Shown: one piece after another, positions 12,977-58,400 of the stretch
Layout of the letters: each line of letters starts with the position of its first letter
Numbering within the stretch: the first letter of the stretch is position 1
From: Candidatus Omnitrophota bacterium
Lineage (GTDB): Bacteria > Omnitrophota > Gorgyraeia > Zapsychrales > Fredricksoniimonadaceae
Reading direction: 5' to 3'
Assembly: GCA_030650275.1 (NCBI GenBank)
Contig: JAUSEK010000023.1
Span: 107,581-171,580 of the forward strand
Length of the DNA stretch: 64,000 nt
The notes under the pieces: generated by a model
What the model was told of the DNA's origin: nothing
What the model saw: only the letters and a program-made list of their open reading frames with translations
Database searches by the model: none
Position numbers and translations under genes: made by a program

Positions 12977-13207
12977 ATGCCTTACGATGCCAGTTTAGAC
13001 GCCGCCACATTCAAAGAAGTGATCGATTTTGAGAACACCCGCGTTACGGTCGGGGTTTTTTCCTATAACGGCGCGCCCAAGAAATTGCAGATCACCCGCG
13101 AAAATTTTCTTAACGAAAAATGGAGTTTCACCAAACTCGGCCGTTTGAACAAGGAAGAGGCGCAGGCGGTTCTGCCGATCATGGCCAAAGCCATCGAAGC
13201 GCTCTAG
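12977..13207 (+). CDS. Hypothetical 76-aa protein, possibly a bacterial PC4/YdbC-like ssDNA-binding fold
   Basis: The weak similarity rests on the spacing of the ...KKLQITRE...SFTKLGRLNKEEAQAV... stretch. This is a guess from memory. Confidence 0.3.
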   Translation: MPYDASLDAATFKEVIDFENTRVTVGVFSYNGAPKKLQITRENFLNEKWSFTKLGRLNKEEAQAVLPIMAKAIEAL

Positions 13208-13215
13208 GGAGTTTT

Positions 13216-13695
13216 ATGGCCAACGAAGTTTACTTGACCCGCGAGGGTTTTCATAAACTGCAAAAACAGCTGGAGACCCTCAAGTCCACCGAACGCCGCA
13301 AGATCGCCAAAGCGATCGGCGAGGCGCGCGCGCAGGGCGACATTTCCGAGAACGCCGAATACGACGCGGCCAAGGAAGCGCAGGCCCACAATGAGACCCG
13401 TGTTGCCGATTTGGAGGCAAAACTGGTCAACGTGCGCATCATCGAGAATGAGAAGATCCCTTCCGACAAGGTGTTCATCGGCGCCATCGTGGCGCTGGAG
13501 GATCTGGACAGCGGTGAAAAAATGACCTACATGCTGGTGTCCCCGGAAGAGGCGAGTTACGAGGAAAAAAAGATCTCGGTGTTTTCCCCCATCGGCAAAG
13601 GGCTTTTGGGCCATAAAGCCAAAGAGACCGTGGAGTTAAAAGTCCCGGCCGGGACACTCAAGTATAAAATTTTAAGCATCAAACGTCCTTCTTAA
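13216..13695 (+). CDS. greA: Transcription elongation factor GreA
   Basis: An N-terminal coiled coil with ..GDISENAEYDAAKE.. is followed by a C-terminal FKBP-like domain. It is 159 aa. Confidence 0.9.
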   Translation: MANEVYLTREGFHKLQKQLETLKSTERRKIAKAIGEARAQGDISENAEYDAAKEAQAHNETRVADLEAKLVNVRIIENEKIPSDKVFIGAIVALEDLDSGEKMTYMLVSPEEASYEEKKISVFSPIGKGLLGHKAKETVELKVPAGTLKYKILSIKRPS

Positions 13696-13865
13696 GCGCA
13701 GGTTCCGCCCACAACATTATCAACGGGTAATACAGTAAGATAAATTTGTCATTTTATCGTATATGGTGTATCATAAAAATGATTTTGTTGCCTCCGCATT
13801 CCCCATGCGGTTAACATAAATTCCCCTAATCAGAAGTTGTTGCTTACGCAAAATAAACCATCATC

Positions 13866-13892
13866 TTTGAGGTTTCAAATTGAAACCTCAAG
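13866..13892. repeat. Perfect 13-bp-arm palindrome CTTGAGGTTTCAA-A-TTGAAACCTCAAG
   Basis: Read directly from the sequence. It lies in a 540-bp ORF-free AT-rich spacer. Confidence 0.8.
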
Positions 13893-13907
13893 TTACCGTG
13901 GATTGTC

Positions 13908-13927
13908 ATTCCCGCGCAGGCGGGAAT
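13908..13927. repeat. Inverted repeat ATTCCC-GCGCAGGC-GGGAAT (dRS3-like architecture)
   Basis: Read directly from the sequence. Confidence 0.7.
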
Positions 13928-13952
13928 CCAAAACATTGACCAAAGGAATACT

Positions 13953-14024
13953 ATGCTCAAAACATTGTCCATCGCCGAATGGCCCATCGACGACCGTCTG
14001 CGGGAAGTAGGTAATTTTACGTAA
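13953..14024 (+). pseudogene. radC (UPF0758) N-terminal remnant
   Basis: The 23-codon ORF MLKTLSIAEWPIDDRLREVGNFT* matches the conserved RadC N-terminal motif (..W/LPxDERPRE(K/R)L..) and then terminates. There is no downstream JAB domain. Confidence 0.35.
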
Positions 14025-14233
14025 CAAGGGGGTAAAATGTTGAATTATTACCTACTTAATGGCTTTAAAAATATGTTTGACCCGGTGATTTGACTTATCA
14101 CGGCCGTAATGATAGAGTGGTCATCACATAGTTCTTCCGGTTCCCCGCCGGAAGTGCGGTTCATACAAACTCCCCTGTTGCAAGCGGTCGTGCCTGTTTT
14201 TTTAAGAATTCTTAATTTTCAAGGGGGCGTGCC

Positions 14234-14779
14234 ATGTCTCAAGAACAAAAGAAGGGGATCCTTGTGCCAGTCGAGATCATCCATAGTAAGATCTATTTAA
14301 TTCGAGGACATAAGGTCATGTTTGATAAGGATTTGGCGGAATTGTATAATGTTGAAACAGGACATCTCAATAGGGCGGTCAGCCGGAATATCGACCGTTT
14401 CCCGGAAGATTTTATGTTCCAACTAACAAAGGAAGAGATGGATTCTTTAAGATGCCAATTTGGCATCTTAAAGAGAGGGCAGCACATTAAGTATTTACCC
14501 TTCGTTTTTACTGAGCAGGGGATCGCTATGCTCTCAAGCGTGCTTAAATCCAAAAGAGCTGTCCAGGTGAACATACAAATTATACGGGTTTTTGTGAGAC
14601 TTAAAGAGCTGATACTTTCCCACAAGGACCTGGCCCGCAAGATTGAGGACCTGGAGCGGAAATTCGGCGACCATGATGCCAAAATCATCCACCTGTTCAA
14701 TGAGATTCGCCGGTTGATGGCCACTTCTGAGCCGCTGGATAATTACAAAAGGACAAAGGTAGGTTTTGTGGTGAATTAA
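14234..14779 (+). CDS. ORF6N-domain DNA-binding protein
   Basis: It matches the conserved ORF6N signature IRGHKVMFDKDLAELYNVETGHLNRAVSRNIDRFPEDFMFQLTKEE...LPFVFTEQGIAMLSSVLKS..AVQVNIQIIRVF. Its GC is lower than that of its neighbours. Confidence 0.7.
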   Translation: MSQEQKKGILVPVEIIHSKIYLIRGHKVMFDKDLAELYNVETGHLNRAVSRNIDRFPEDFMFQLTKEEMDSLRCQFGILKRGQHIKYLPFVFTEQGIAMLSSVLKSKRAVQVNIQIIRVFVRLKELILSHKDLARKIEDLERKFGDHDAKIIHLFNEIRRLMATSEPLDNYKRTKVGFVVN

Positions 14780-14788
14780 GAAACGCTT

Positions 14789-14816
14789 TTGCAAGTGGGC
14801 GGGTTTTCTGTATAAT
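14789..14816 (+). promoter_or_regulatory. Promoter TTGCAA-16-TATAAT ending 6 nt before the ATG at 14823 (leaderless transcript predicted)
   Basis: The hexamers sit at 14789-14794 and 14811-16. The start codon A falls at the expected +1 position. Confidence 0.45.
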
Positions 14817-14822
14817 GCACCC

Positions 14823-15836
14823 ATGATTTCTCTCGGCGTCATCGGTTGCGGTCATTGGGGACCCAACCATGTCCGTGTTTTTTCCCAGTTGACGGCCTCG
14901 CGTGTCGTCCGGTGCGCAGACCCCGACGAAAAACGCCTGGCATTCGTCCGCGCGCTTTTTCCCGCTGTTGAAACCACGACGGACTATACGCGGATCCTCA
15001 AAGATCCCGGCGTTGACGCGGTGGTCATTGCCGCGCCCACTGATCTGCATTTTAAATTGACCAGGGAGGCGCTGGAGGCGGGCAAGCATGTCCTTTGCGA
15101 AAAACCCCTGTCGCTTGACCCAGATGAGTGTCTTAAGCTGGGCGATCTGGCCCGCAAGCAGGGCAAGGTCCTGATGGCCGGGCATGTTTTTGTTTTCAAC
15201 CGGGGCATTGTCAAGATGCGCGAGTACATCCAGGGCGGAGAATTAGGGGCATTGCATTACGCCCATAGCGAGCGCACCAATCTGGGCCCGTTCCGTTACG
15301 ACGTCAATGCCTTGTGGGACCTGGCCCCGCACGACATTTCCATTTTCAATTACCTGTTTGACAGTTGTCCGGTGAGCGTTTCGGCCCGCGGGCATAAATG
15401 CCTGGGCAAGGTCCTGGAAGACCTGGCCTTTGCCACCCTTGATTATCCCAATGATGTCATGGTCAATATCCATGTCAGCTGGCTTGACCCCAGGAAGGTG
15501 CGCCAGATCACCATCGTCGGCGCCCAGAAAATGGTGTCCTGGGACGACCTGGACAACGACGGGTCCATCAAACTTTACGACAAGCACGTTGAGAAAACAT
15601 CCGTTTATTACGAGACCTATGGCGAGTTCCAGCTGTTGTCCCGTGAGGGGAACGTCACCATCCCCAAGATCGGTTTCCACGAGCCGCTCAAGGACCAGGC
15701 GCAGTATTTTATCGACTGTGTTGTCAAAAACGTCCCGCCGGTTTTGGCGGATGCCCAAAGGGCTTATGATGTTGTGCGCACCCTGTGCGCCATCCAGGAG
15801 TCCATGGACCGCAAAGGCGAATTGGTCAAACTATGA
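14823..15836 (+). CDS. Gfo/Idh/MocA-family NAD(P)-dependent sugar oxidoreductase (WbpB-like)
   Basis: It has the N-terminal Rossmann fold GVIGCGHWG, the family's C-terminal domain, and a sugar-modification context. Confidence 0.8.
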   Translation: MISLGVIGCGHWGPNHVRVFSQLTASRVVRCADPDEKRLAFVRALFPAVETTTDYTRILKDPGVDAVVIAAPTDLHFKLTREALEAGKHVLCEKPLSLDPDECLKLGDLARKQGKVLMAGHVFVFNRGIVKMREYIQGGELGALHYAHSERTNLGPFRYDVNALWDLAPHDISIFNYLFDSCPVSVSARGHKCLGKVLEDLAFATLDYPNDVMVNIHVSWLDPRKVRQITIVGAQKMVSWDDLDNDGSIKLYDKHVEKTSVYYETYGEFQLLSREGNVTIPKIGFHEPLKDQAQYFIDCVVKNVPPVLADAQRAYDVVRTLCAIQESMDRKGELVKL

Positions 15837-23560: not shown

Positions 23561-24727
23561 ATGCTTTTTTCCCGACGTACGGACTGGCCATTAGTCCCCA
23601 ATGAACTTGCAGACATCTTGCAGAATATGCGCGCGCAAGGTCAGGACATTTTGGATCTGACCGAGTCCAATCCGACCCGGTGCGGTTTCAATTATTCCCC
23701 GTCGATATTATCCGCGTTCAATGTTCCGGACAATTTGACCTATGACCCGGCCTCCCAGGGGGTTCCCAAGGCCCGGCAGGCGGTGGCCGGATATTACGCG
23801 GCCAAGGGTTTGTCCGTCAACGTGGATGATATTGTTCTCACCTCCAGCACGTCCGAGGCGTATGCGTTCCTTTTGCGGCTTTTGTTGAACCCCGGGGAGA
23901 AAGCCCTTGTCCCGCGGCCCAGTTATCCGTTATTCCAGTTTTTGCTGGAGCTCAATGATGTTGCCTATACCCAGTATCCTTTGGTCTACGATGGGGCGTG
24001 GCGTCTGGACCAACAGGCCCTTGAAGACGCGGTGGATGAGAAAACCCGCGCTGTCATTCTGGTCAATCCCAATAATCCGACGGGGTCCTATGTCCAAAAG
24101 GATGAACTGGATTTTTTGAACGGCCTGTGCCTGCGGCATTCCCTGTCTTTGATCTCCGACGAGGTTTTTATGGATTATGGGTGGGGGCCGCGGGCCGGCG
24201 TGACCTTGATGGGAAACGCGCGGGTGCCGACCTTTGTGCTGGGCGGATTGTCCAAGACATTGGGGCTGCCGCAGATGAAAATGTCCTGGCTGGCCATGTC
24301 CGGTCCACGGGACACCATCGCCACGGCCATGGGGCGTCTGGAGATCATCGCGGACACGTTTTTGTCCGTCAATACGCCCGTGCAGAATGCCGCGCCCGTC
24401 TGGCTGGCTGATGCCGGCGGCGTCCGGGACCAGGTGCTACGCAGAGTGAAAGACAACTGGTTCTGGCTTAATGCTCACGTTCCCGCCGGTGTCAAGGTAT
24501 TGTCCGCCCAGGGCGGCTGGTATGCGGTGCTGGCCATTGAGGGCCTTACGGACGAGGAGGCCTTTGTCACCGGACTGCTCAAGGACGAACGCGTTCTGGC
24601 GCATCCCGGGTATTTTTTTGATTTTGAGGCCTCGGGATACGTTGTTGTGTCGCTTTTACCAACTGCGGAAATTTTTTGCCAGGCCGCCGGCCGTCTGTTA
24701 AGATATGTCCATGAACAAAAGACCTGA
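23561..24727 (+). CDS. PLP-dependent aminotransferase, class I/II (AlaA/AlaC-like)
   Basis: It has the fold-type I motifs ...NPNNPTG... and ...SKT.G..G.R.G... Confidence 0.85.
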   Translation: MLFSRRTDWPLVPNELADILQNMRAQGQDILDLTESNPTRCGFNYSPSILSAFNVPDNLTYDPASQGVPKARQAVAGYYAAKGLSVNVDDIVLTSSTSEAYAFLLRLLLNPGEKALVPRPSYPLFQFLLELNDVAYTQYPLVYDGAWRLDQQALEDAVDEKTRAVILVNPNNPTGSYVQKDELDFLNGLCLRHSLSLISDEVFMDYGWGPRAGVTLMGNARVPTFVLGGLSKTLGLPQMKMSWLAMSGPRDTIATAMGRLEIIADTFLSVNTPVQNAAPVWLADAGGVRDQVLRRVKDNWFWLNAHVPAGVKVLSAQGGWYAVLAIEGLTDEEAFVTGLLKDERVLAHPGYFFDFEASGYVVVSLLPTAEIFCQAAGRLLRYVHEQKT

Positions 24728-25184
24728 CTGGGACGAATATTTCATGAAACTGGCGATGCTCGCTTCCGAGCGCGCCACATGCCCGCGCATGCATTGCGGA
24801 TGCGTCCTGGTCAAGGCCAAGAACGTCATTGCCACCGGGTATAACGGGTCCATCCCCGGGGACGAACATTGCGACGACGCGGGGTGTCTGCTCGTGGATG
24901 ACCATTGCGTGCGCACCGTGCATGCCGAAATGAACGCGCTGATCCAGGCGGCCAGGCGCGGCCATGCCGTTGAGGGAGCCGGCGCCTACATCACCAACAT
25001 GCCTTGCACCACCTGCGCCAAGGCCTTGATCACCGCCGGCGTCAAGCGCGTCGTGGTTTTTTCCGATTACCATAAGACCATGGCCACGGAATTTTTTGCC
25101 AAGGCCGGGGTCATCATTGACCGCGTTCCCATGCCGGACAAAATGATCGATTATGACCTTAAAAATTATTCTTCCGCACGCTAG
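24711..25184 (+). CDS. dCMP deaminase (ComEB-like)
   Basis: It has the N-terminal WDEYFM motif and the zinc ligands HAEMNA...PCTTCA. Confidence 0.85.
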   Translation: MNKRPDWDEYFMKLAMLASERATCPRMHCGCVLVKAKNVIATGYNGSIPGDEHCDDAGCLLVDDHCVRTVHAEMNALIQAARRGHAVEGAGAYITNMPCTTCAKALITAGVKRVVVFSDYHKTMATEFFAKAGVIIDRVPMPDKMIDYDLKNYSSAR

Positions 25185-25193
25185 GAGACAGAT

Positions 25194-25583
25194 ATGGCCA
25201 TCAAAGTCCTGATCGCCGACGACGAAGAAGCCATCCTTGGGATCATGGCTAATAAAGTGGCCGCGCAGGATTACGCGGTCGTGACCGCCCGCGACGGCCA
25301 GGAAGCGTGGGACAAGATCGTTTCCGAAAGCCCCGACGTGATCATCCTCGACATCGTCATGCCCAAAATGGACGGTTGGTCCGTCTTGCATAAACTGCGC
25401 TCTGAGCCCCCGTCGAAGAAATGGCAGCCCGTCATCATCGTTTCCGCTCTGGGGGAAATGGACCATGTGCAAAAAGGGCTGGATCTGGAAGCCGACCATT
25501 ATTTGACCAAACCCTGCCGTATCGAGGATGTTCTCAAAGGCATACGTCTGATGGTATCGTTGATCCCGGCGAGAAACGTTTAG
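25194..25583 (+). CDS. Single-domain response regulator (CheY-like)
   Basis: The REC-domain motifs DDE...D...K are present. It is 129 aa. Confidence 0.85.
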   Translation: MAIKVLIADDEEAILGIMANKVAAQDYAVVTARDGQEAWDKIVSESPDVIILDIVMPKMDGWSVLHKLRSEPPSKKWQPVIIVSALGEMDHVQKGLDLEADHYLTKPCRIEDVLKGIRLMVSLIPARNV

Positions 25584-25636
25584 CCACGGCCCCAAGCCAT
25601 GACAAATTTTGTCCCGATCGTTTGTATTGTATTGCT

Positions 25637-26830
25637 ATGAACATTTTAACGACACACGGCACGGCGATCCTTGATGGTCAGCGGCCCGTTATGCTTAAGG
25701 GCGTGAATTTCGGGGGATGGCTGATGATGGAAGCGTATTTCACGCATGCCCCGAATTTTGCCGAGAAGGTTTTTAAGGAACATTTTTCAAAAGTCCGCGG
25801 GGACAAAACCCTTGCGCAACTGGAACGGTCATTTCGCGCGAATTTCATCACCGAGGCAGACATGAAAACCGTGGCCGGCTTAGGCATGAATTGCGTGCGC
25901 CTGCCGTTCAATGGCCGTTTGCTTGAGCGAAAGCCTTATCAGGTTGATCCCGCGGGTTTTCATTATCTTGACGATGCCGTGCGCTGGGCCAGGAAATACG
26001 GCGTGCGCTTGATCCTGGATCTGCACGCGGCGCCGGGATCGCAGAATCACGACTGGCATTCGGACAGTTTGGGTAAAGCCGGGTTATGGACGTCCAACAG
26101 AAACCAAAAACGCGTGTGTGCTTTATGGGAAGCGGTGGCGGACCGTTATAAGGACGAAGGCGCGGTGGCCGGCTATGACCTGCTCAATGAGGCGGTTGTG
26201 CAGGACAATGGTCTTTTGAACCGTTTTTATAAAAGCGTCATCAAAACCATCCGTTCGGTGGACCGCAGGCACATTTTGTTCATTGAAGGCAATCGCTGGG
26301 CGCAGGACATCGACATGTTGGAGGATTTTTCCGACGACAATTGGGCTTACAGCGTCCATTTTTATGAGCCCGTGGAATTCACGTTCCATCTCAACCATTT
26401 CCTGAAATACCCGTTGATATCCAGGGCCGGAAGATGGGACGCGGGGGTGATGCGCCGCCGGATGAAGGCGTATTTGACCCAAGCGCGCTCCAGGCAAAGG
26501 CCGGTGTATGTCGGCGAGTTCGGGGTCAATGCCCGCGAAGGCGTTTACGGCGAGGACATTTATCTGCGCGACCTTTTGAAGGTGTTCAATGACTGCGGTT
26601 TCCACTGGACGTACTGGACCTATAAAGCGGTCAAAAATTATATGTTTCCCGACGGTATTTACAGTTACAGGCCTAATACTCCGTGGGTCAATCGCCAGGG
26701 GCCCAAGAGCGGCTGGGACACGTGGGCGGCCTTGTGGCCCAAGCATCAAAAGGACATGATCGCGTCCTGGCGGACAAAGACCTTCACGCCCAACGCGCGC
26801 GTCCTGGCCGAATTAAAAAAGGCCATTTGA
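25637..26830 (+). CDS. Glycoside hydrolase family 5
   Basis: It has a (β/α)8 fold with the catalytic NE (LLNEAV) and GEFG (VGEFGV) motifs. It lacks a signal peptide. Confidence 0.7.
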   Translation: MNILTTHGTAILDGQRPVMLKGVNFGGWLMMEAYFTHAPNFAEKVFKEHFSKVRGDKTLAQLERSFRANFITEADMKTVAGLGMNCVRLPFNGRLLERKPYQVDPAGFHYLDDAVRWARKYGVRLILDLHAAPGSQNHDWHSDSLGKAGLWTSNRNQKRVCALWEAVADRYKDEGAVAGYDLLNEAVVQDNGLLNRFYKSVIKTIRSVDRRHILFIEGNRWAQDIDMLEDFSDDNWAYSVHFYEPVEFTFHLNHFLKYPLISRAGRWDAGVMRRRMKAYLTQARSRQRPVYVGEFGVNAREGVYGEDIYLRDLLKVFNDCGFHWTYWTYKAVKNYMFPDGIYSYRPNTPWVNRQGPKSGWDTWAALWPKHQKDMIASWRTKTFTPNARVLAELKKAI

Positions 26831-28323: not shown

Positions 28324-30263
28324 TCACCGTCAGCAATTTATCCAAGAATTTTGATGAGCGCATGCTCCTGCAGGATGTGTCTCTGGGCATTTTTCCCAAT
28401 GAGCGCATCGGCCTGACCGGCCCCAACGGGGCGGGCAAAAGCACGTTGTTTGCCATCATCCTCGGACAAATGGAACCCACGTCGGGTTCGGTGCAGGTCC
28501 AGAAAAACTTGAAGATCGGTCATATGGCGCAGGAAACGAAATACGCCTCCGACCGCACGGTCATGGATGAAATGACGTCCGGCGATGCACAGATCCGTGA
28601 ACTTCTGCATGAAAAACACCGCCTGGAAGAAGAACATAAGGCCGACAGTTCCCGTTACGGCGATATTTTGGAGGTCCTGGAGAAAAAGGGCATTTATGAA
28701 ATGGAACATAAGGCCGAAAAAGTCCTGACCGGGCTTGGCTTCAAACAGGAGGATTTCCATAAGCCCATTGCCCATTTGTCAGGCGGCTGGCAGATGCGCA
28801 CCCAGTTGGCCAAACTGCTGACCACCCGTTACGACCTGCTTTTGCTCGACGAGCCGACCAATTACCTTGACCTGGAGGCCACGCTGTGGCTCAAAGGATA
28901 TTTGTCCAAATACGACGGGACGTTCATCATCATTTCGCACGACAAGATCTTCCTCAACGATGTCACCAATTACACCATCATTCTGGAAGACGGAAAAATG
29001 ACCAAGGTCAAGGGCAATTACGAACTGTATGAAGAGGAAAAGATCACGCGCCTGCGCACCCTGGAAAAACAAAGCAAGGTCATTGAAAAGAAACGCGAAC
29101 AGCTGGAACGTTTCACCGAGCGTTTTCACGCCCAGCCCAATCGTGCCTCTGCCGTGCGCAACAAACGTAAAATGCTCGACCGGATGGAAGAGATCCGCAT
29201 CCCGCAGGAAAAACACAGCATCCGCGATTTTCAGTTTCCCCCGACAATAGAAAGCGGTCATACGGTCCTGACCATGAGCAAGGTCGCGAAATCCTACGGG
29301 GACAAACAGGTCTACAAGGACCTTGACCTTGAGATCACCAAGGGCCAGAGAATATGCCTGGTCGGCCCCAATGGTGCCGGCAAAAGCACGCTGCTCAAAA
29401 TGCTCGCCGGGGTCCTGCCGTTCGATTCCGGCACGCGCAAACTCGGGCATCAGGTGTCTTTGGGATATTTTTCCCAAACGCGTCTGGATGTTTTGAACCC
29501 GGCGCGCACGGCGCTGGAGGAATTGTTGTCCGCGTCCACGGCCTCGGTGCCCATGACGCAGGCGCGCACCCTTTTGGGTGTTTTTAATTTCCGCGGGGAC
29601 GACGTGTTCAAACACGTGCGGATCCTCTCCGGAGGGGAAAAAAGCCGGCTCATCCTGGCCAAACTTCTGGTCAATCCGCCCAATTTCATTTTGCTCGACG
29701 AGCCCACGACCCACCTGGACATCGACGGGGTGGAAGCCCTGACGAGTTGTTTCAGGAAATACACGGGCACGCTGTGTTTTATCAGCCACGATCTTTTTTT
29801 CGTCAAAGAGATCGCCGACCATATCATGGACGTCAATAACGGGACGCTGAAAATGTATCCCGGCGGCCTTGATTATTATCTGGACAAGAAAGCCGGCCGC
29901 GACGCGCAGGAAAGACAAAAAGCAGGGCAGGAGAGGGCCGCTGCCAAACAGAAAAGATCCGCTCCGCCGGGAAATAACGGCCATGCCGCGTCTTCTCAAA
30001 TCAGGTCTGCCCAACAACGTCATCGGCAGGCCTTAAAGCGTCTGGAAGATATCAAGACAGAGGCCAAGAATTTTGAAAATGAGCGCAAACAGCTGGAGAC
30101 CGAAAGTTACGTCAAGTCACGCGTTCTTTCTGATGCGTTCGGCCGGGACCCGGTCCTGATCAAGGAATACGGCCGGCGGCTCAAGGAGATCCAGCAACGC
30201 ATGCGGGAGATCGTCGTGACCCTGGACAAACTGCAGGAAGAGAAGATAAGGATCACCAAATGA
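28320..30263 (+). CDS. ABC-F family ATPase (Uup/EttA-like translation factor)
   Basis: It has two complete ABC cassettes (GPNGAGKST twice, LSGG motifs), no TM domain and a C-terminal coiled coil. Confidence 0.85.
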   Translation: MITVSNLSKNFDERMLLQDVSLGIFPNERIGLTGPNGAGKSTLFAIILGQMEPTSGSVQVQKNLKIGHMAQETKYASDRTVMDEMTSGDAQIRELLHEKHRLEEEHKADSSRYGDILEVLEKKGIYEMEHKAEKVLTGLGFKQEDFHKPIAHLSGGWQMRTQLAKLLTTRYDLLLLDEPTNYLDLEATLWLKGYLSKYDGTFIIISHDKIFLNDVTNYTIILEDGKMTKVKGNYELYEEEKITRLRTLEKQSKVIEKKREQLERFTERFHAQPNRASAVRNKRKMLDRMEEIRIPQEKHSIRDFQFPPTIESGHTVLTMSKVAKSYGDKQVYKDLDLEITKGQRICLVGPNGAGKSTLLKMLAGVLPFDSGTRKLGHQVSLGYFSQTRLDVLNPARTALEELLSASTASVPMTQARTLLGVFNFRGDDVFKHVRILSGGEKSRLILAKLLVNPPNFILLDEPTTHLDIDGVEALTSCFRKYTGTLCFISHDLFFVKEIADHIMDVNNGTLKMYPGGLDYYLDKKAGRDAQERQKAGQERAAAKQKRSAPPGNNGHAASSQIRSAQQRHRQALKRLEDIKTEAKNFENERKQLETESYVKSRVLSDAFGRDPVLIKEYGRRLKEIQQRMREIVVTLDKLQEEKIRITK

Positions 30264-30634
30264 TAGCACCACTATTGCTGGTCCTTTTTTTCAGCGGGTG
30301 CGTGCAGGTGCAGATGCTGCCCCATCTCGACGAGGCGCTGACCCTTCGGTCATTCAGCGCGCAAAAGGACGAACAGCATCAATATGTCCGTGACGCGGAT
30401 GCCCGGTTTGACAAACTTTTGGCCGCGGTGCAAAGCGGGGACATCAAGAAGTACAACACAAAAAAAGATATTGTGAGGGCTTTCGGAGAGCCGGTCCTGA
30501 CCAAGGACATTGTCATCGATGGGCTGCCTTCGACATATGGCCTGTATCGTCATGCCATTGGATCCAAAGCTAAACAGAAAGTGTATCTGTATTTTAATGC
30601 CCAGGGGCAGTTGACCTATTGGGAGTCTATATGA
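30260..30634 (+). CDS. Lipoprotein, hypothetical
   Basis: It has a signal peptide with the lipobox FFSGC and is 124 aa. Confidence 0.45.
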   Translation: MIAPLLLVLFFSGCVQVQMLPHLDEALTLRSFSAQKDEQHQYVRDADARFDKLLAAVQSGDIKKYNTKKDIVRAFGEPVLTKDIVIDGLPSTYGLYRHAIGSKAKQKVYLYFNAQGQLTYWESI

Positions 30635-30679
30635 TGACAAAGGCTATTTAGTAAGATTTGTATCATTGGAGGAATGGTC

Positions 30680-32029
30680 ATGAGCGCTAAGTTTGAAAAG
30701 TTAAATATTTTCTTCGATAGAATAAAAACTATTGGATTTTTTCAAAGAATATTCCAGTGGCGTCAGATTAGCAATTTAAGTCATGATGCTTATCGAGAAT
30801 TTAAGGAGCTGGAGAGATTGTTTGAGGATACGACCACAAGGATCAACGAATTAAATAAATCAACAGAACTTTCGAGTGTTGAAAATGATCGTCTTAAGTC
30901 AGAGAAAATAAAATTAGAGAATTTGTTGAAGTCTGGGGTAGAGAAATTGGAGGATACTAAGGGAGAGGTTTCCGATTTAAAGGCTTCGATTGCTTCGAAA
31001 GACGAAAAAATAAGTTCGTTAACGGAACAAATTAAAAAAGAGGCGATTGAATTAGCCGTATTGAAAGAAAAAACAAGCCTGCTTGAACAAGAAATGCAGA
31101 AAATTAAGCAAGAAAATACAAAATATGAACAGACCGAGGCTGGCCGGTTGGCTAAACATGGTAATGAGATGGCAACAATTATAACCATCAGAGATCAAAT
31201 CCAAAGCGACAGAAAGAAAGAGATAGAGGAACATCAGGCAAATGAGATTGCTCGTATAGAAGCGATGAAGGAAACCTGGAGCAAACATCAGGAAAAGGTC
31301 AAGAATACTATCAAATCAATATGTCAAAAACATGCCATAGAGTATTTGGATCAAGTTCCTTTTAAGGGAAGCCCTGATAACACAGTTAAGATTTGTGATG
31401 AATTTGTTATTTTTGATGCCAAAAGTCCTTCTTCGGATGATTTGGGAAATTTTCCGGTCTATATCAAAGCTCAGACTGAGGCGGTGAAGAAGTATATAAA
31501 AGAGGAAAATGTGCGCAAAGATATTTTTCTTGTAGTTCCTTCGAATACCGTCGATGTTATTGAACAGTTCAGCTATAACATGGCTGACTACAACGTTTAT
31601 ATAATCACTATCAATGTGCTCGAGCCGCTTATGTTGCTTGTTAAGAAGCTCGAAGATTATGAATTTGTTAATCAATTAAGCCCAGAAGAGCGGGAAGATA
31701 TTTGTAGAATCATTGGTAAGTTTGCTTACATGACAAAAAGAAGAATACAAATCGATCATTTTTTTACCCGACAATTTCTTGAAATACTTGCTAAATGTGA
31801 AGCTGGTCTTCCAGGAGAGATACTTGACAGGGTGGCTGCATTCGAACAATCTGAGAAATTGAATCCTCCTCAAGAGAAGCGTGCAAAACAGATTCTCATC
31901 AAAGATTTAGAAAAGGATGATCAGAAAATTCAGAAAGAGGCCGAAGCAAAGAGTGTTGTGTTTCCTTTATCATTGTCGCGCAATATCAAGAACATTCCGC
32001 TCTATGAAGGGGAAGAATCGGTCTCGTAA
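30680..32029 (+). CDS. RmuC-family DNA recombination protein-like (AT-rich, probably horizontally acquired)
   Basis: An N-terminal ~200-aa coiled coil is followed by a C-terminal region matching RmuC motifs (DEFVIFDAKSP, KKYIKE, DIFLVVPSNTV, NVYIITINVLEPLMLL). A GGAGGA Shine-Dalgarno lies 8 nt upstream. Local GC is about 35% against about 58% for its neighbours. Confidence 0.5.
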   Translation: MSAKFEKLNIFFDRIKTIGFFQRIFQWRQISNLSHDAYREFKELERLFEDTTTRINELNKSTELSSVENDRLKSEKIKLENLLKSGVEKLEDTKGEVSDLKASIASKDEKISSLTEQIKKEAIELAVLKEKTSLLEQEMQKIKQENTKYEQTEAGRLAKHGNEMATIITIRDQIQSDRKKEIEEHQANEIARIEAMKETWSKHQEKVKNTIKSICQKHAIEYLDQVPFKGSPDNTVKICDEFVIFDAKSPSSDDLGNFPVYIKAQTEAVKKYIKEENVRKDIFLVVPSNTVDVIEQFSYNMADYNVYIITINVLEPLMLLVKKLEDYEFVNQLSPEEREDICRIIGKFAYMTKRRIQIDHFFTRQFLEILAKCEAGLPGEILDRVAAFEQSEKLNPPQEKRAKQILIKDLEKDDQKIQKEAEAKSVVFPLSLSRNIKNIPLYEGEESVS

Positions 32030-32048
32030 GAATAAGATATTATGTTTT

Positions 32049-32735
32049 ATGATAATTTTTAAAGATCCTTCCGTGATTGCTTTCACCAGCGACGCGTCCG
32101 TTGATTTCACCACACAGGATTTTGACGCGTCTTTGGCCCCGGCCCAAAGCGCCTACCTTAAAACGCATACCGGTATTGACATCCCGCGGGTTTTTTGGCG
32201 CAAACAGGTCCACGGGGATGATGTCCTCATCGCCGGAAAAGAGGCCTGCGCCAGGGGCTGTCCTGACGCGGACGCTTTCATCACCGACCGCAAGAACGTG
32301 CCGATCGCCATCCGCACGGCGGATTGCGTGCCGGTCTTTATTTATGATCCCCTCAAACAGGTCATCGGCCTGGCCCATGCCGGATGGAAGGGGACGCGTC
32401 AGCGCATCGCGGCTAAAACCGTCCAGGAAATGCAAGACAAATTCACCTGCCGATGCTATGATTTAAAAGTTGCTTTAGGTCCGGCCATCCGTTCGTGCTG
32501 TTATGAAGCGGGGCCGGAATTTAAGGTGTATTTCCCGGACGATACTGTTGAACGCGGTGGAAAAGTTTACGTGGATATCGTCGCGGCCAACCGCCGCCAG
32601 TTGGTGGAAGCGGGGATTGACGACGGCAATATTTTCGATGGCGGCGCGTGCACCTGCTGCAATAAAGATTATTTTTCGTTTCGCAGGGACGGTAAAAAAG
32701 CCGGACGCATGATCTCTTTGATGATGTTGTTGTAA
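32049..32735 (+). CDS. pgeF: PgeF/YfiH (DUF152) purine-nucleoside/peptidoglycan-editing factor
   Basis: It has the conserved motifs ...TADCVPVF..D....IGLAHAGWKG and ...C.CCY. Confidence 0.75.
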   Translation: MIIFKDPSVIAFTSDASVDFTTQDFDASLAPAQSAYLKTHTGIDIPRVFWRKQVHGDDVLIAGKEACARGCPDADAFITDRKNVPIAIRTADCVPVFIYDPLKQVIGLAHAGWKGTRQRIAAKTVQEMQDKFTCRCYDLKVALGPAIRSCCYEAGPEFKVYFPDDTVERGGKVYVDIVAANRRQLVEAGIDDGNIFDGGACTCCNKDYFSFRRDGKKAGRMISLMMLL

Positions 32736-32741: not shown

Positions 32742-33533
32742 ATGTATATCGTCGTTTTGGTCACAGCCAAGGATGCAAAAGAAGCGCACAAGATCGCCAA
32801 CGGTCTTTTGCAGGACAAGTTGGTCGCCTGCGCCAATATCGTTGCGGGCGTGCGGTCTTTGTTTTGGTGGCGGGCACAAGTGGATTCATCCAAAGAAGCA
32901 TTGCTTATCCTCAAAACAAAGAAGGCCTTGTTCAAAAAAGTCGTCGCCAAAGTCAAGGTGCTGCACAGTTATGAGGTCCCGGAGATCATCGCTTTGCCCA
33001 TTGTTGCAGGCAGCAGCGATTATTTAAAATGGATCAAAACGTTGGTCTCCATCATATTTGTCGGGATGGTCCTGTCCGCGCCTTCTTTAGCGCCGGCCAT
33101 GAGCAATATGCCGGAGGGGACTTCAGAAATATCTTTGGTGGGCAAGGCCGCTTATGACGTGACCCTGCCGACGGCTTTGGGTGAGCAGAAGTCGCTGTCG
33201 CAGGCGCGGGAAGGCAAGAAAGCGGTGCTGTTCTTCTGGGCCACCTGGTGTCCTCATTGCCGCGATGAGATCACGCGCATGAACAAGAACCTCGATGCCA
33301 TCACCGCCAAGGGGATCAAGGTCGTTTTGGTGTCCATCGGGGAAACGAAAGAGGATGTGGCGGCTTATTTAAAGCGCAATGCCGTTGTGCTGGACAGTTT
33401 CTTGGATGAGGACAATGCTTTGCAGGGACCGTATGATCTGGTCGGCGTTCCGACGCTGGTCTTCGTGGATGAAAAGGGCGTTATCCGCGAGGTGCGCCAC
33501 GATTTTCCCGATGATTACGAGAAATTTTTTTAG
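32742..33533 (+). CDS. CutA1 divalent-cation tolerance domain fused via a TM segment to a TlpA/ResA-like thioredoxin-fold domain
   Basis: Residues 1-~105 match CutA (...VACANI..G..S.YWW...LKT...EVPEIIALPI..G...YLKWI). A hydrophobic segment follows, then a thioredoxin domain with the WCPHC active site. Confidence 0.7.
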   Translation: MYIVVLVTAKDAKEAHKIANGLLQDKLVACANIVAGVRSLFWWRAQVDSSKEALLILKTKKALFKKVVAKVKVLHSYEVPEIIALPIVAGSSDYLKWIKTLVSIIFVGMVLSAPSLAPAMSNMPEGTSEISLVGKAAYDVTLPTALGEQKSLSQAREGKKAVLFFWATWCPHCRDEITRMNKNLDAITAKGIKVVLVSIGETKEDVAAYLKRNAVVLDSFLDEDNALQGPYDLVGVPTLVFVDEKGVIREVRHDFPDDYEKFF

Positions 33534-35106: not shown

Positions 35107-38097
35107 ATGAACCCCTTGTTCCGCCAGATCATTTGCTCTATTTTGACCGTTACGTTTGCGTTAACAGCGGTCCCGCCTCTGCACGCCCAAGAGATTTACC
35201 TGCCCCAACCCGGCGTCCGCATTGGCCTAAGCCCCCAATTCAACCCCGCCGTCCTCAAAGGCCTCAAGGTCCATCCCGACAATCCGTTTCGGTTTGATTT
35301 CATATTGGATACCGGTGACGTAGAGACGCAGCATGCTGCGTCTCTACAAAACGAATCAATGAAATTGATCAAATATTTCCTCGCCTCTTTAACCATCCCC
35401 GAACAAGACCTCTGGGTCAACCTGTCTCCTTATGAGAAGGATAGAATTGTTCCTCAATCCTTTGGTCAAACCGAGATGGGACGTGACCTATTAGCCCAGG
35501 ATTATCTGCTCAAGCAGATCACCGCATCACTAATCTACCCAGAGGATGAATTCGGCAAGATCTTCTGGAAGAGGGTCTATGAAGAAGCCAACAAGAGATT
35601 TGGAACAACCAACATCCCGGTCAATACCTTCAACAAGGTCTGGATCGTGCCAGAGAAGGCCGTAGTCTATGAGAACGCGCAAGCAGGCACGGCGTATGTG
35701 GTAGAAAGCCGATTGAAGGTGATGTTGGAAGAGGATTATCTTGCCTTGGCCAACAACCAACCGCCTACCAGGGGACATGTTCCGCAGAACGTGTCCCCAA
35801 GCACCCTGCCAACCTATCAACCATTGAATCCGAAAGCATCCCAGGGAAATCCCCTTAACGCCTCACCAGAGATTAACGCATTAGGTTCTCAAATAGTCAG
35901 AGAGATTGTCATTCCCGCATTAACCAAAGAAATCAACGAAAACAAGAACTTTGCCCAACTAAGACAGGTCTACAACTCCCTTATCTTGGCCACCTGGTAC
36001 AAGAAGAAGATCAAGGACAGCATTCTCTCTCAAGTGTATGCAGATAAGAATAAGATTTCAGGCCTAACGCCAACCAGGGGACATGTTGCTGGCACCGCTA
36101 GTGCCAGTAACGTGTCCCCAAGCACGTTGCCAACCAACCCAGCATTGAATGCGAAAGCACCCCAGGGAAACCCGCCCAACGATGTCGAAGCCATCTACCA
36201 GCAATACCTCACCGCCTTCAAGAAAGGGGTCTACAACTACATCAAAGAAGAGCAGGACCCTGTGACCCGACAGATGATTCCAAGGAAGTATTTTTCGGGT
36301 GGCGTGAAATTCGGTGATGTGGCGATGGTGACTACAAAGGATGCGGCCATGCTTCCGCAGGTGGCTTCCGATCACTCCGCTATTGTTCAGACAAATTTAA
36401 ATCCAGCTGGCCGGGCGATGGCGGCTATACAGGATTGGGAAAGAGTGCGTGCTCGGGCAAAAATTTCTTTCTTCGTCAAAACATTTTTTATTATGGGAGG
36501 GACGGTTATCGGTGCAAGTGCGTTTAAGCATTACAGTCAGAACGTATACGCGGTTCTCGCAATGGGGATGTTGTACGGCTTCACAACCTTCCGTTTTGTT
36601 ATGGACGACTACTTAATAGGAAAAAGTGAACGTGCTGGGGACTATATTACGATTTCAAGGCAACCGAAGGAAAGGGACTCTTTGGGTATTCATGTCGTCC
36701 TAAATTTAAAGGGGCTGGCCGGACAACAGGAGAACGCATATACACTTATCGCGGAAGATGTGGTTAAGGTTGTTTATGAGCTTGTTGCGAACTGGAAACA
36801 AGAGGGTGGGCTTAAAGAAGTAAAATATATTACAGGAGATTCCCCGTTGCTTGTTCAGGAGAGGAGGGGTATGGGAGCAAGGTTTATGCCTAGCATAAAG
36901 CGTCTGCTCAATAAGATCGGCGTGGGGGATGAGGATATTGAAGTGCACAAACGTCAAAGAACAGATAAAAGGCAGTTTATGTTGTGGAAGATATTGTATC
37001 CGCGTGTATGGATGATAAATAATAAAACATATAGTGGCAGATTCAGGATGAATGTTTCCACGCCCGAGGCTCAGCAGGCCTTGCTTGAAAAATTGAGACC
37101 TGTTTATGATGCGTTGAACGGCGTTGATCCTAATGATCCGGAAAAGATGGCCAAGAAAAGGCGAATTTTGTTCGGCGGGAGTTTGGCGCGGGATGAAGAA
37201 GCCCAAGTGGACGATGCCACAGCCTCCGTGCAGGCCGGGCCGGACGCGGCGATGTCAAGGTCACAACAGTCAGAAAATATTAAAAGCATTGCTGATTGGA
37301 TTGATGCTCTCAAGAAAGACAATTATGTTTTGTTCCACCAAACAATGGATGATTCAGCTGAAAGAATATTACAGAGTTATTTTAAAACCAGCCCTCAAAT
37401 TAATGGGATTGCCGCAGTATATACTCGAGAAATTTTGATGGGAAATCTTCAATGGATGTCTATGTCTGCGGGAGAATTTCAGAGACGTCGTTTGGAACAG
37501 GACGGTCCCCTCGGACAAATTCACAAAGGTGCAAATGCGATAGTTGTTCTTGTTTTTCCAAAAAAAGAATTCGGAGGCGTAGATCGTTTTATCCGACTTT
37601 TCGAAGTCTTTGAGATGATTGATGAAAAAATAGGCGGCGATTGGCTTCAAGAAACAGGAGGTATGGGTGTCCCCAATAAATATGTAGCTGGATATATCCA
37701 TCCCACTGATCAATCCATTGATGTGTATATAAATCCAAATAGCGTTGTTAAACCTTTATCTGATGAGCATTGGGGATTGTTAGGCGTTGGAAATGAAAAT
37801 TTGATTGTTTTAAGGGATCAGGCGATAAAAAGTGTTATGAGCAAACAATCCGGCCCTGGAGGTATTGACTTTAAATCCGACAAGGTGGACAGCGCTTTTG
37901 AAATAAAAAGAGAGCCGGAACAAATGGGGACACGTAACGAGTACATGTCCCCATTTGTCGACCCGGTCATGCTGGAGCAATTACAAAACGCCCCGGGGTT
38001 CGTGCCGGTGATCATCAACATCCAGCCCATGACGGATTTGCGGATGTTTTTGGGGCTTCAAGAAAATAAGCCGGAAAAAGAGGAGGCTGTGTTATAA
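35107..38097 (+). CDS. Large secreted protein (996 aa), paralog A: conserved N-terminal domain + variable middle + C-terminal GGIDFKSDKVDSAF...PGFVPVIIN module
   Basis: It has a Sec signal peptide (…ALTAVPPLHAQE). It is a paralog of the 55409..60343 product and contains an internal tandem repeat. Confidence 0.7.
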   Translation: MNPLFRQIICSILTVTFALTAVPPLHAQEIYLPQPGVRIGLSPQFNPAVLKGLKVHPDNPFRFDFILDTGDVETQHAASLQNESMKLIKYFLASLTIPEQDLWVNLSPYEKDRIVPQSFGQTEMGRDLLAQDYLLKQITASLIYPEDEFGKIFWKRVYEEANKRFGTTNIPVNTFNKVWIVPEKAVVYENAQAGTAYVVESRLKVMLEEDYLALANNQPPTRGHVPQNVSPSTLPTYQPLNPKASQGNPLNASPEINALGSQIVREIVIPALTKEINENKNFAQLRQVYNSLILATWYKKKIKDSILSQVYADKNKISGLTPTRGHVAGTASASNVSPSTLPTNPALNAKAPQGNPPNDVEAIYQQYLTAFKKGVYNYIKEEQDPVTRQMIPRKYFSGGVKFGDVAMVTTKDAAMLPQVASDHSAIVQTNLNPAGRAMAAIQDWERVRARAKISFFVKTFFIMGGTVIGASAFKHYSQNVYAVLAMGMLYGFTTFRFVMDDYLIGKSERAGDYITISRQPKERDSLGIHVVLNLKGLAGQQENAYTLIAEDVVKVVYELVANWKQEGGLKEVKYITGDSPLLVQERRGMGARFMPSIKRLLNKIGVGDEDIEVHKRQRTDKRQFMLWKILYPRVWMINNKTYSGRFRMNVSTPEAQQALLEKLRPVYDALNGVDPNDPEKMAKKRRILFGGSLARDEEAQVDDATASVQAGPDAAMSRSQQSENIKSIADWIDALKKDNYVLFHQTMDDSAERILQSYFKTSPQINGIAAVYTREILMGNLQWMSMSAGEFQRRRLEQDGPLGQIHKGANAIVVLVFPKKEFGGVDRFIRLFEVFEMIDEKIGGDWLQETGGMGVPNKYVAGYIHPTDQSIDVYINPNSVVKPLSDEHWGLLGVGNENLIVLRDQAIKSVMSKQSGPGGIDFKSDKVDSAFEIKREPEQMGTRNEYMSPFVDPVMLEQLQNAPGFVPVIINIQPMTDLRMFLGLQENKPEKEEAVL

Positions 38098-41824: not shown

Positions 41825-41898
41825 TGCCCGGTGGTGTAATGGTAGCACCCGAGAATTTGGATCTCGTTGTCCAGGTTCGAATCCTGGCTGGGCAACCA
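41825..41898 (+). tRNA. tRNA-Gln (anticodon UUG), CCA encoded
   Basis: I folded the cloverleaf by hand. The acceptor stem TGCCCGG pairs with CTGGGCA, the D-arm is GTGT..GCAC and the T-arm is CCAGG-TTCGAAT-CCTGG. The anticodon stem CGAGA pairs with TCTCG, the anticodon loop is ATTTGGA, and the gene ends in ACCA. Confidence 0.85.
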
Positions 41899-55408: not shown

Positions 55409-58400
55409 ATGAAATACCCCGTATTCCGTCGTTTAACCTGCGCTTTGGTCATTATTACCTTTACGGCAACGATGACCCCAGCTTTGCACGCACAGGAAAT
55501 TTCGCTTCCTCAGCCCGGCGTCCGCGTATCCTTAAGCCCCGCCTTTAACCCCCCAGTCCTCAAAGGCCTCAAGGTCCATTCCGATAATCCGTTTCGTTTT
55601 GATTTTATCCTTGATCAAGGTGATTCCCTCCCCCTTGTGGGGAGGGCCAGGGAGGGGGACAAACAAGAACAACTCAAACAAGAAGCCAACAAACTCATCA
55701 AATACTTCCTCGCCTCTCTGACCGTGCCAGAGAAAGACCTCTGGGTCAACCTCTCTCCCTATGAGAAAGACCGTATCGTCCCCACATCTTTCGGTCAAAC
55801 CGAGATGGGAAGGGATCTTCTGGCCCAGGACTATCTGCTTAAGCAAATAACCGCATCTCTGATCTATCCAGAGGATGAATTGGGTAAGACCTTCTGGAAC
55901 AGGATCTACCAAGAAGCATCCAGGAGATACCATACAACCAACATCCCGGTCAATACATTCAACAAGGTATGGATCGTACCCGAGAAAGCCGTAGTGTACG
56001 AGAACGCGCAGGCGGGAACGGCTTACGTTGTCGAATCCAGATTGAAGGTGATGCTAGAAGAAGATTATTTGGCATTATCCAAAAATACCGTAGGGGCGCA
56101 ATTTATTGCGCCCGATAAGGGTTCGATGAATCGAACCCCTACGGATGTTAATTCGTTGGGTTCCCAGATTATCCGTGAGATCGTCATCCCCGCCTTAACC
56201 AAGGAAATCAACGAAGGAAAGAACTTCGCCCAACTCCGTCAGGTCTACAATTCTCTGATCCTTGCCACCTGGTACAAGAAGAAGATCAAGGATAGTATTC
56301 TCAATAAAGTTTATTCCGATAGGAATAAAGTTTTAGGCATTGGTTACGATACGCCAACCAGGGGACATGTTGCTGGCACCGCCAGTGCCAGTAACGTGTC
56401 CCCAAGCACGCTGCCAAGCGACCCAGGGTTGAATGCGAAAGCACCCCAGGGAAACCCGCCCAACGATGTCGAAGCCATCTACCAGCAATACCTCACCGCC
56501 TTCAAGAAAGGCGTCTACAACTACATCAAAGAAGAACAAGATCCCATCACCCAACAGATTATCCCGAGGAAATATTTTTCGGGTGGTGTTAAATGGGGCA
56601 TGGCAATGCTTCAAACAACAACAGATCAGGCCATGCTCCCGCAAGTAGTTTCCGATCATGCCGCTATTGTTCAGACAAATTTAAATCCAGCCGACCGTGC
56701 GATATTCAGTAATATCACCAGTAGGGCTGATTCAGCAGCTGCTAGCCGAAGAATTCTATCGTTTAATCAAGCTAAAATGGCATTTGCCGACTTCTTGCTA
56801 GGCAGAGATGGAAAAAGCAAACAAATTGTTGATTTGCCAAGACTAGTGGATAGCCTCAATGCAATGAATAAACCTACAAGAGAAAAATTCCTAGAGTGGA
56901 CTGTGAATATGGATGATAATTGGTATCAGTATGGTTTATCCAATCATAGTAAAGCTAAATATCGTTCGCTGGCATTATTGTTAATGGAAATGGAAAGCCA
57001 TAACCGAAATGCTCCGGCTATGAAACTTTGGAATTTTCTTTCCCAACGGTTTGGAGCGTCTCGTTTTCACACAGAACAATGGGTATCTTGGCAACCTGCA
57101 ATTGACCAAAATCTGTTAAAGGATGTATTACGCATTGCGAAACGATATGGGCTGCGCGCTCATGGGACATTGAATTTTAACATGTTCGGGATCAATAAAT
57201 ATTCTGCTCTCAACGGTTTCTTTCAGAATGAATGGGGAATGCTTAATATCATGATCGATGGGAATCTGTCTCGGGGAAGCATTGGCCCTTTAGCGCCTGT
57301 TGAAGATGAAGGGAATCCGAATGTCGCGGCAGCATTATATGGCCCTTTTTATATTATTGTTGATAAACGTCAAGATGAAGTGCTGCCTGAGAGGCGTTTG
57401 AATGAGCATGACAGAGTTTCTCGAAAGGATCAGTTGATTTATCTTGTCCCAAGCGAAAAAGAAGTACTTTTTTTCAGTGAAGGTATTCGTGAAGCTTTGC
57501 ATTTGGGCCTCATTGATCAGGGAATCGCTGACGAGGTATTATCAAAACTTATGACGTATGGACAGTTCGTGATTAATCAAGCCGCATTGGCTAATCTTGA
57601 AACTCCCGGTGGCATCGACTTCAAATCTGATAAAGTGGACAGCGCCCAATTAAGCCAAGACCGGGCGATGATGACCAGACGAAATTTTCTGTCTTCGTCG
57701 GTTGCGGCAGGTATTGGACTGGTATTACCAAATGCCACCCTTGGGCAATCACTCGCAGGCTTTGGCAGGACGCCTATACCTGATAAACCAGATCAGGTCC
57801 AAGTACGATCTATTACAGGTTTTGAAACCCATGGCAATCGATACAATCTCACTTTTGAGGGGTTTAATCATAATCAGGGCGTAATAAAATCGGCGGGGCG
57901 GCAAGCGCGGGAAGTGGGTCATTTTAATTTCTTTATTTATCCCAATGGGGGATCGATACTAAGGATTGTCGGAGAATTCCCGGGGATCAATGAATCCGCG
58001 CACTTCTTTTCAGTTAACCGGGATCGGGATAAGATCAATTATATAGGCTCCACCGATAACTCTGCAGCGTTAGGGGATATTGCTTTAAACGAAGGGTTAT
58101 GGGTGCTTCTCGGTGAGTATTTAACGACAGGTTCTTTGCCTTCGGAATTTGACCAACAATTTAATATTTTATTTCCTCGTTGGGCGCCACTGAATTCTTT
58201 GACCGATCGATCGCCGTTTAATTTCTCAACAGGGCTCGTTAATGTTTTATCTCCGCGTTTTGTTCCTCCGGATGATAAAACGCTTTTGCTCGTCGGGCAG
58301 CAGCGAGACATCATTGAGGGTTATGTTCGCGCTGTTGGAGTGCCCGGTGGGTTTATGTCCTATACATCCATTAAACATTTGGAGGGATTAACCACGTTGG

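Follow-up and report, generated by a model that had tools for sequence, protein, structure and literature searches.

A single gene in a 64,000 nt stretch of the Candidatus Omnitrophota contig JAUSEK010000023.1 (positions 107,581 to 171,580; hereafter the window) is so AT-rich that two questions arise, namely what the gene encodes and how long it has resided there. GC content in 300-nt windows is 0.33-0.38 at about 30500-32000 vs. 0.51-0.59 on either side, and this low-GC tract, with edges that are sharp at the gene boundaries, coincides with a single open reading frame (ORF) of 451 aa at 30674..32029 (+). Judged from conserved residues and predicted fold, the product is probably a stand-alone DNA endonuclease; its family is unnamed and remotely related to RmuC.

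Overall GC content is 0.367 in the gene, 0.518 in the 6 kb on either side and 0.532 in the full window. The GC content at third codon positions (GC3) is 0.368 compared with 0.669±0.065 in the other 49 long ORFs, which makes the gene the minimum of the window (z = -4.65) and puts the GC3 gap between gene and host (dGC3) at -0.30. Across the three codon positions (GC1/GC2/GC3) the gene has 0.46/0.27/0.37, its neighbours approximately 0.54-0.63/0.34-0.43/0.61-0.70. The low GC2 (0.275) means that part of the deficit is due to an amino acid composition rich in K, E, I and N; most of the deficit is synonymous. A preliminary description of this DNA gave about 35% GC against about 58% for the surroundings. 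The drop is real, with flanks at about 52-55% rather than 58%, and the different codon usage it described is borne out by the gene having the lowest GC3 of all 50 long ORFs.

The ATG at 30680 is the preferred start because a ribosome-binding site, GGAGGA, read from the sequence at 30668..30673 (+), sits 6 nt upstream; its GGAGG is aligned in the syntenic locus L002, a related Omnitrophota metagenome contig used for comparison. The resulting coding sequence (30680..32029, +) specifies a predicted RmuC-like coiled-coil nuclease of 449 aa, and this start agrees with the NCBI annotation of a 100% identical protein (P0001), a hypothetical protein from a Candidatus Omnitrophota metagenome-assembled genome (MAG). 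Residues are numbered here on the 451-aa ORF, which is present at the length first described and contains each of the motifs VIFDAKSP, DIFLVVPSNTV and NVYIITINVLEPLMLL in its translation.

Alignments of 48 close homologues and of 68 diverse family members, together with AlphaFold models run twice (from 48- and 38-sequence alignments), define the regions of the protein. Residues 3-45 (30680..30808, +) form a conserved N-terminal segment of aromatic and basic amphipathic helices with invariant F13, F14, R25, W29 and A39. Its hydrophobic periodicity is conserved across the 68 diverse members; no transmembrane (TM) helix is evident, the N-terminus having no hydrophobic 19-residue Kyte-Doolittle window and a maximum far under that of E. 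coli RmuC residues 5-23 (2.46). A long α-helical rod or coiled coil, variable in length within the family, spans residues 29-203 (30758..31282, +) and is modelled as a single helix with a predicted local distance difference test (pLDDT) of 77-94, in agreement with the N-terminal coiled coil of about 200 aa originally proposed. Some of the 48 close homologues carry rod insertions of about 44 aa. In alignment A1 (columns ~270-310; P0013, P0087, P0096, P0106 and P0116) the insert of about 44 residues repeats a local A(S/T)(K/R)(D/E)E.(I/L)(R/K) motif, a pattern that suggests a rod assembled by duplication of units.

The predicted PD-(D/E)xK nuclease core follows at residues 205-326 (31286..31651, +), with the topology α-β-β-β-α-β-α-β-β-α and a pLDDT of about 80-90. 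Its putative catalytic signature (31373..31423, +) comprises P234-D235 (31373-31378) and D248-A249-K250 (31415-31423), residues that are invariant in the 48 close homologues, at least 90% conserved in the 68 diverse ones, and in register with the PD...DAK of RmuC. D235 opens β2 and D248-x-K250 lies on β3 in the AlphaFold models, the canonical PD-(D/E)xK arrangement, so that both hallmarks of the superfamily, the αβββαβ core and the D...(D/E)xK residues on β2/β3, are found. Other invariant residues of the C-terminal 250 are F247, N302, D305, E317, R345, K355-R356, Q359 and D361. Several of these (R345, K355, R356, Q359, D361) belong to a conserved C-terminal helical region, residues 327-430 (31652..31963, +), whose first helices align with RmuC and which is a candidate DNA-binding or regulatory module. 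The protein ends, after a variable linker, in a near-invariant P442-L443-Y-E peptide (31997..32008, +), P442 and L443 being at least 90% conserved in alignment A1. Residues 441-447 read (I/L)PLYE(G/D)(E/D) after the charged, variable linker in almost all members; the peptide looks like a short docking motif, the partner being hypothetical.

The window copy lies on the longest branch and is 59-68% identical to its relatives. It keeps all invariant residues and deviates at 12 of the 168 conserved columns (family median 7, maximum 21), and on this basis looks intact and functional. Pseudogenisation or relaxed constraint was considered and rejected, as the 12 deviations are within the family range and the invariant residues are intact.

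The preliminary description took the C-terminal region to match RmuC. Curated RmuC models do not recover the family. PF02646 gives no match for the window protein (E<=1) or for the 68 diverse members (E<=0.01), and none of the 68 matches RTasRmuC of PADLOC. The same models perform as expected on true RmuC proteins: E. coli RmuC matches PF02646 at 3.4e-109, and three true RmuCs match RTasRmuC at 1e-41 to 1e-118. An RmuC hidden Markov model (HMM) built for this analysis found nothing in 1.48 Mb of sequence that includes the loci of family members. Matches of the window protein to JetC, LmuB, SMC and Fez1 HMMs are compositional coiled-coil noise confined to residues 30-220 and were discarded; the PADLOC models, a defence HMM set of the kind that the preliminary description proposed to search, yielded this coiled-coil noise and no defence family.

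Profile-to-profile comparison gives a different result. The RmuC side was represented by 13 sequences, i.e. E. coli rmuC and twelve RmuCs, recognised by annotation or by tblastn, that come from plasmids and chromids of Gamma-, Beta- and Alphaproteobacteria, Bacteroidota, Gemmatimonadota, Fervidibacterota and Actinomycetota. With domain-only profiles, hhalign aligned the family to these RmuCs over 145 columns with a score of 40.6 (P 3.5e-5); with full-length profiles the probability was 95.5% (E 1.4e-8, 148 columns), the nuclease core alone still being paired (family 208-355 with RmuC 207-396). Reversed profiles scored about 14, thirty block-shuffled RmuC profiles 16.2±2.6 (maximum 25.3), and the negative controls RecD and ThyA 13.6. 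Nine single RmuC sequences scored 18-40, the best reaching 56% probability over 135 columns, while single E. coli McrC, Mrr, HsdR (N-terminal 400 aa), MutH and the C-terminal parts of RecB and RecC stayed at background level with 14-21, a panel of six proteins that left out Can2, NgoMIV, Bax1, Cdn1, NucS and Hjc. A comparison of the shallow alignment A2 with single E. coli RmuC was negative (0.2%) and is superseded by the diverse profiles on both sides. The domain-only alignment pairs PD with PD, DAK with DAK, FLVVP with MFIPVE and NVYIIT with NIMLVSP, and runs on through the subsequent helices. As far as sequence comparison can tell, the relationship to RmuC is real, specific and remote, and the family is outside RmuC by curated definitions. 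The original assignment is thus upheld as remote homology, with clean controls, and not as membership, since all 68 members tested are missed by the curated models.

The likeness extends to overall design. Like RmuC (YigN, PF02646), the family has a helical or coiled-coil N-terminal region followed by a PD-(D/E)xK core, the same motif order and register (PD...(V/I)DAK, then φφLφφP, then Nφφφφ(S/T), then a helix), and a single gene without fixed partner. It differs in having an aromatic/basic amphipathic pattern where E. coli RmuC has an N-terminal TM helix, in its distinct, strongly conserved C-terminal helical module with the PLYE tail, and in being rare and patchy. RmuC itself is widely distributed, and its biochemistry is barely known. 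Sequence identity to other PD-(D/E)xK nucleases is 6-19%, and the window protein lacks both a sensor domain, such as CARF or SAVED, and a partner helicase or GTPase. Among single sequences, the one closest to the family profile is a canonical RmuC on the 36-kb plasmid NZ_CP130455.1 of Candidatus Fervidibacter sacchari (23671-26336). The genes on either side of this true RmuC encode a large helicase-related protein and a DUF1156 protein, a setting that resembles a defence operon.

A collection of 5.8 billion proteins holds more than 2,299 homologues, all of them unnamed or misnamed after the coiled coil, e.g. as 'chromosome segregation ATPase' or 'myosin heavy subunit'. When the C-terminal 256 residues were searched as a profile against 1.84 billion cluster representatives (clusters at 50% identity), 365 matched at E<=1e-3, of which 304 reached E<=1e-10. 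Because this search ends in a closed set and never reaches RmuC, the family is discrete at the HMM level. Carriers number 474 of 185,579 species genomes (one genome per species), about 0.26%, in about 10 phyla. The best 80 loci are all from MAGs, have a C-terminal domain 55-76% identical to that of the window protein, and come from Bacteroidota (Cytophagales, Chitinophagales, Flavobacteriales and Ignavibacteria), Omnitrophota, Planctomycetota, Desulfobacterota, Alphaproteobacteria, Chloroflexota, Elusimicrobiota, Saganbacteria and Patescibacteria. Outside Bacteroidota the GC3 of the gene is often 0.15-0.30 under that of the host, as in L029 (Alphaproteobacteria), L041 (Elusimicrobia), L088 (Patescibacteria) and several Planctomycetota and Omnitrophota. 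Taken from these sequence data, the family is one that moves horizontally between phyla.

No neighbouring gene is conserved across lineages in more than 80 loci, and the protein therefore seems to act alone. Candidate partner genes were examined and set aside: a small upstream lipoprotein is common to the window and L002 only, and adjacency to pgeF is limited to Omnitrophota. Two kinds of setting stand out. Cytophagales copies occupy a conserved block with a Cpn10-like gene, a class-III aminotransferase, a HAD hydrolase and an HD-dGTPase-like gene, and their GC3 equals that of the host, reaching 0.67-0.70; from block and composition together, inheritance there is vertical. The second setting is found in the Omnitrophota-dominated clade that also contains the window copy, where the family member of four loci lies among defence genes. 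L012 and L013 both have, upstream, a DrmD-like PLD-SNF2 helicase and a type IIG/DrmMI-like methyltransferase; downstream, L012 has an OLD/AriA/GajA-type ATPase-TOPRIM gene and L013 has PDC-S46 (1e-274) and then an integrase. L019 (the same as L004) has a Cas4-like gene upstream and PDC-M14A-like, AbiEii, AAA_15/21 and TIR genes downstream, and L014 has a LexA-S24-methyltransferase fusion upstream and DUF4238-Pers downstream. Comparison of two metagenomic/MAG loci, L012:1-9626 and L013:1-9824, finds helicase, methyltransferase and family member in common and different genes immediately downstream; to judge from this gene order, the site is a defence hotspot with cassette exchange.

A role can be proposed by analogy with ShdA, the RmuC-domain protein of the Shield system of Pseudomonas, which protects against phage on its own and acts as a non-specific DNase (PMC10270631). 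Both would be proteins with one RmuC-type nuclease domain able to act alone, and in both an N-terminal element probably controls a potentially genotoxic DNase; some copies of the present family lie in defence islands. Differences are that the RmuC domain of ShdA is bona fide and that ShdA is anchored in the membrane, neither of which holds for the present family, and that the family's rod is much longer and its members occur in Omnitrophota, Bacteroidota, Planctomycetota and other phyla. In the proposed mechanism the rod would dimerise and bring two catalytic cores together, the paired cores would cut double-stranded DNA in a Mg2+-dependent manner, and the basic C-terminal helices would bind DNA. 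The N-terminal amphipathic segment may stand in for the membrane anchor of RmuC and ShdA, localising or restraining the enzyme. The most likely role within the Omnitrophota clade that includes the window copy would be a Shield-like innate defence in which one protein restricts incoming or aberrant DNA, and the gene would have entered the higher-GC lineage of the window and L002 from low-GC Omnitrophota at about the time these split, remaining partly unameliorated to date. The explanation as a whole is given slightly better than even chances. An anti-phage role, as the preliminary description suggested, or defence in the manner of Shield, considered by itself, falls somewhat short of even; the defence islands around the nearest relatives make it plausible, and it fits the patchy, transferred distribution.

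Several observations weigh against this explanation. HMM scans of the window protein against Pfam, NCBIfam, PADLOC and PHROGs found no RmuC, nuclease or defence family, and the 68 diverse members fared no better. Confidence in the models is moderate (mean pLDDT 72.5 and 70.6 in the two runs), the conserved C-terminal region being poorly predicted. Foldseek matches fall in the same class and speak for the fold, but they are weak, none at E<=0.001; PDB sequence searches with the protein and with the profile likewise gave no match, and PDB fold searches are unable to return RmuC because no RmuC structure has been solved. Clear defence islands account for only 4 of about 52 non-Cytophagales loci, most neighbours being housekeeping genes; no defence genes adjoin the gene in the window, and the Cytophagales copies are vertically inherited in their housekeeping block. 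No copy is present in 72,556 plasmids, 50,697 phage genomes or 2.9 million viral contigs (IMG/VR), and conservation across phyla is very high, which is unusual for arms-race genes.

Some of these same observations would suit a housekeeping analogue of RmuC, a chromosomal nuclease for hairpins or cruciforms that limits illegitimate recombination or aids repair and whose copies in defence islands are incidental passengers. E. coli rmuC limits inversion at short inverted repeats in vivo according to Slupska et al. 2000, as cited in PMC10270631. The remote homology and shared architecture with RmuC would be expected of such an enzyme, as would strong purifying selection across phyla, the lack of copies in plasmid and phage collections, vertical synteny among housekeeping genes with host-matched GC3 in at least 25 Cytophagales loci, and the place of the window gene in an operon-like housekeeping array that is kept in L002. 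A housekeeping function sits poorly with a gene found in about 0.26% of species genomes and distributed patchily across phyla, with clear inter-phylum transfer and a compositional anomaly in many hosts, and with the restriction-modification, OLD/Gabija-like, AbiEii, PDC-S46 and DUF4238 genes that flank the copies nearest to that of the window. It is possible though rather doubtful. Equally tentative is a more specific form of the defence idea, in which the family would be a new single-protein system against mobile genetic elements, a cytoplasmic, rod-shaped, anchor-less RmuC-like nuclease kept off host DNA by its N-terminal segment or C-terminal module, a replaceable cassette in uncultivated phyla and domesticated in Cytophagales. 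Under that proposal, circulation of the cassette in uncultivated phyla would account for the copies that lie upstream of pgeF in Omnitrophota being persistently AT-rich.

The history of the window copy can be read from its surroundings. Housekeeping genes, closely packed and on the same strand, surround the gene, and gene order in the window and L002 is alike: SpoU methylase, RluB-like pseudouridine synthase, ABC-F, small lipoprotein, the family gene, pgeF, CutA, thioredoxin and SurA. The upstream neighbour, a small predicted lipoprotein of 124 aa (30260..30634, +), is host-typical in GC, bounds the low-GC tract on the left and is 48% identical to its L002 ortholog. The downstream neighbour, a pgeF/YfiH-type Cu-oxidase_4 gene (32049..32735, +), also has host-typical GC, and its junction with the family gene aligns with that of L002. 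DNA is colinear through both junctions, and the family protein is 62.5% identical between the two loci. In a neighbour-joining tree the window and L002 copies are sisters (87% bootstrap) and, with L012 and L013, make up a clade supported at 83%. At four-fold degenerate sites of conserved residues, identity exceeds what composition predicts by +0.12 in the gene, the corresponding values in the flanks running from -0.01 to +0.17, so the gene has diverged for about as long as its neighbours. From the shared slot, colinear junctions, sister copies and neighbour-like divergence it follows that the gene was in place before the window and L002 lineages split.

Composition bears on where the gene came from. 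Other members of the clade have a GC3 of 0.27-0.39 in hosts of 35-46% GC. The L002 copy, at 0.54 vs. a host GC3 of 0.72, is also under its genome's GC; relatives with genome-average GC, which would have spoken against the acquisition put forward in the preliminary description, were thus not found at this slot. GC at four-fold degenerate sites (GC4) is 0.41 and 0.63 in the two gene copies vs. 0.72-0.87 in the flanks. A rough amelioration estimate is compatible with one transfer from a donor with a GC3 of about 0.3 near the split, and transfer from a low-GC Omnitrophota pool around that time is the best fit, a reading held with a little more confidence than doubt. It does not explain everything. 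pgeF is immediately downstream in five Omnitrophota loci (window, L002, L009, L023 and L026), and since the pgeF-adjacent copies are all AT-richer than their hosts, a single old transfer does not account for them fully; the hint is of an ancient placement that has ameliorated slowly, or of alleles replaced repeatedly at the site.

The low GC could instead be maintained in place, either through rare-codon or low-expression selection on a toxic nuclease or through repeated allelic replacement from low-GC relatives. Every one of the five pgeF-adjacent copies is 0.13-0.30 under host GC3 despite deep divergence, and ShdA without its membrane anchor was too toxic to clone (PMC10270631), both of which would be in keeping with maintenance. 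Against it are the Cytophagales copies, which match their hosts at a GC3 of 0.67-0.70, and the amelioration arithmetic, which is compatible with one transfer near the split; maintenance is considered unlikely. An intrinsic need of the protein for AT-rich codons was also considered and is ruled out by the Cytophagales copies at that same GC3.

A recently acquired, strain-specific single-gene island inserted into a housekeeping operon would give the extreme GC and GC3 outlier with edges sharp at the gene boundaries, and the mobility of the family would allow it. The L002 ortholog occupies the identical slot, however, even though the flanking proteins of the two loci are 48-78% identical, and the junction DNA, the sister pairing and the synonymous signal are as described above. 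Short repeats around the gene are at chance level, with no direct repeats and no terminators; no integrase is found among the neighbours, and the sole tRNA in the window is at 41825. Apart from itself, no protein more than 70% identical to that of the window is present among the 5.8 billion. Recent insertion is therefore very improbable, and of the horizontal acquisition first suggested, the family's mobility and the atypical composition stand while the recent single-gene island does not. Least credible of all is that the protein is an effector or accessory subunit of a multi-gene restriction system, with the window copy an orphaned remnant: in L012 and L013 the gene does follow the DrmD-like helicase and the DrmMI-like methyltransferase on the same strand with short gaps, but this pairing occurs in 2 of more than 85 loci, both genes are missing at all others, and the window copy keeps every invariant residue after long solitary residence.

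Additional observations concern the boundary with pgeF and the rest of the window. A 19-nt AT-rich spacer (32030-32048) precedes pgeF in the window, and the first five pgeF codons (ATG ATA ATT TTT AAA) are also AT-rich. In L002 the stop of the family gene overlaps the pgeF start (ATGA, L002:9227-9230), which suggests translational coupling with pgeF. Further downstream, a 263-aa ORF (32742-33533, +) is CutA1-like in its N-terminal part and thioredoxin/AhpC-TSA-like in its C-terminal part; residues 2-99 are 68% identical to CutA and residues 120-263 are 54% identical to thioredoxin of L002. These are separate genes in L002 and L009, and the ORF is an apparent gene fusion in the window's lineage. 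Two very large ORFs, at 35107-38097 (+; 996 aa, GC3 0.51) and 55409-60343 (+; about 1,645 aa, GC3 0.48), are also low in GC3 vs. 0.67. The first contains an internal repeat (…PTRGHV…NVSPSTLPT…LN(P/A)KA(S/P)QGNP…), an ORF of more than 1,800 aa follows SurA in the syntenic position of L002, and the two window ORFs may encode large surface proteins of Omnitrophota. A smaller low-GC dip at 13000-15000 contains a 182-aa ORF (14234-14779, +; GC 0.435, GC3 0.54).

The RmuC domain has only recently been tied to phage defence, through Shield, and an RmuC structure has yet to be solved. The present family extends the RmuC-type nuclease into sequence space that has no curated model, in hundreds of mostly uncultivated species and without a membrane anchor, and offers a soluble, well-conserved candidate for structural and mechanistic study of RmuC-like enzymes. 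Because its members are at present called 'hypothetical' or are mislabelled by their coiled coil, a new HMM for the family would be useful for annotation of defence islands and genomes. The locus also shows that a gene standing out sharply in composition may nonetheless be long established in its syntenic place.

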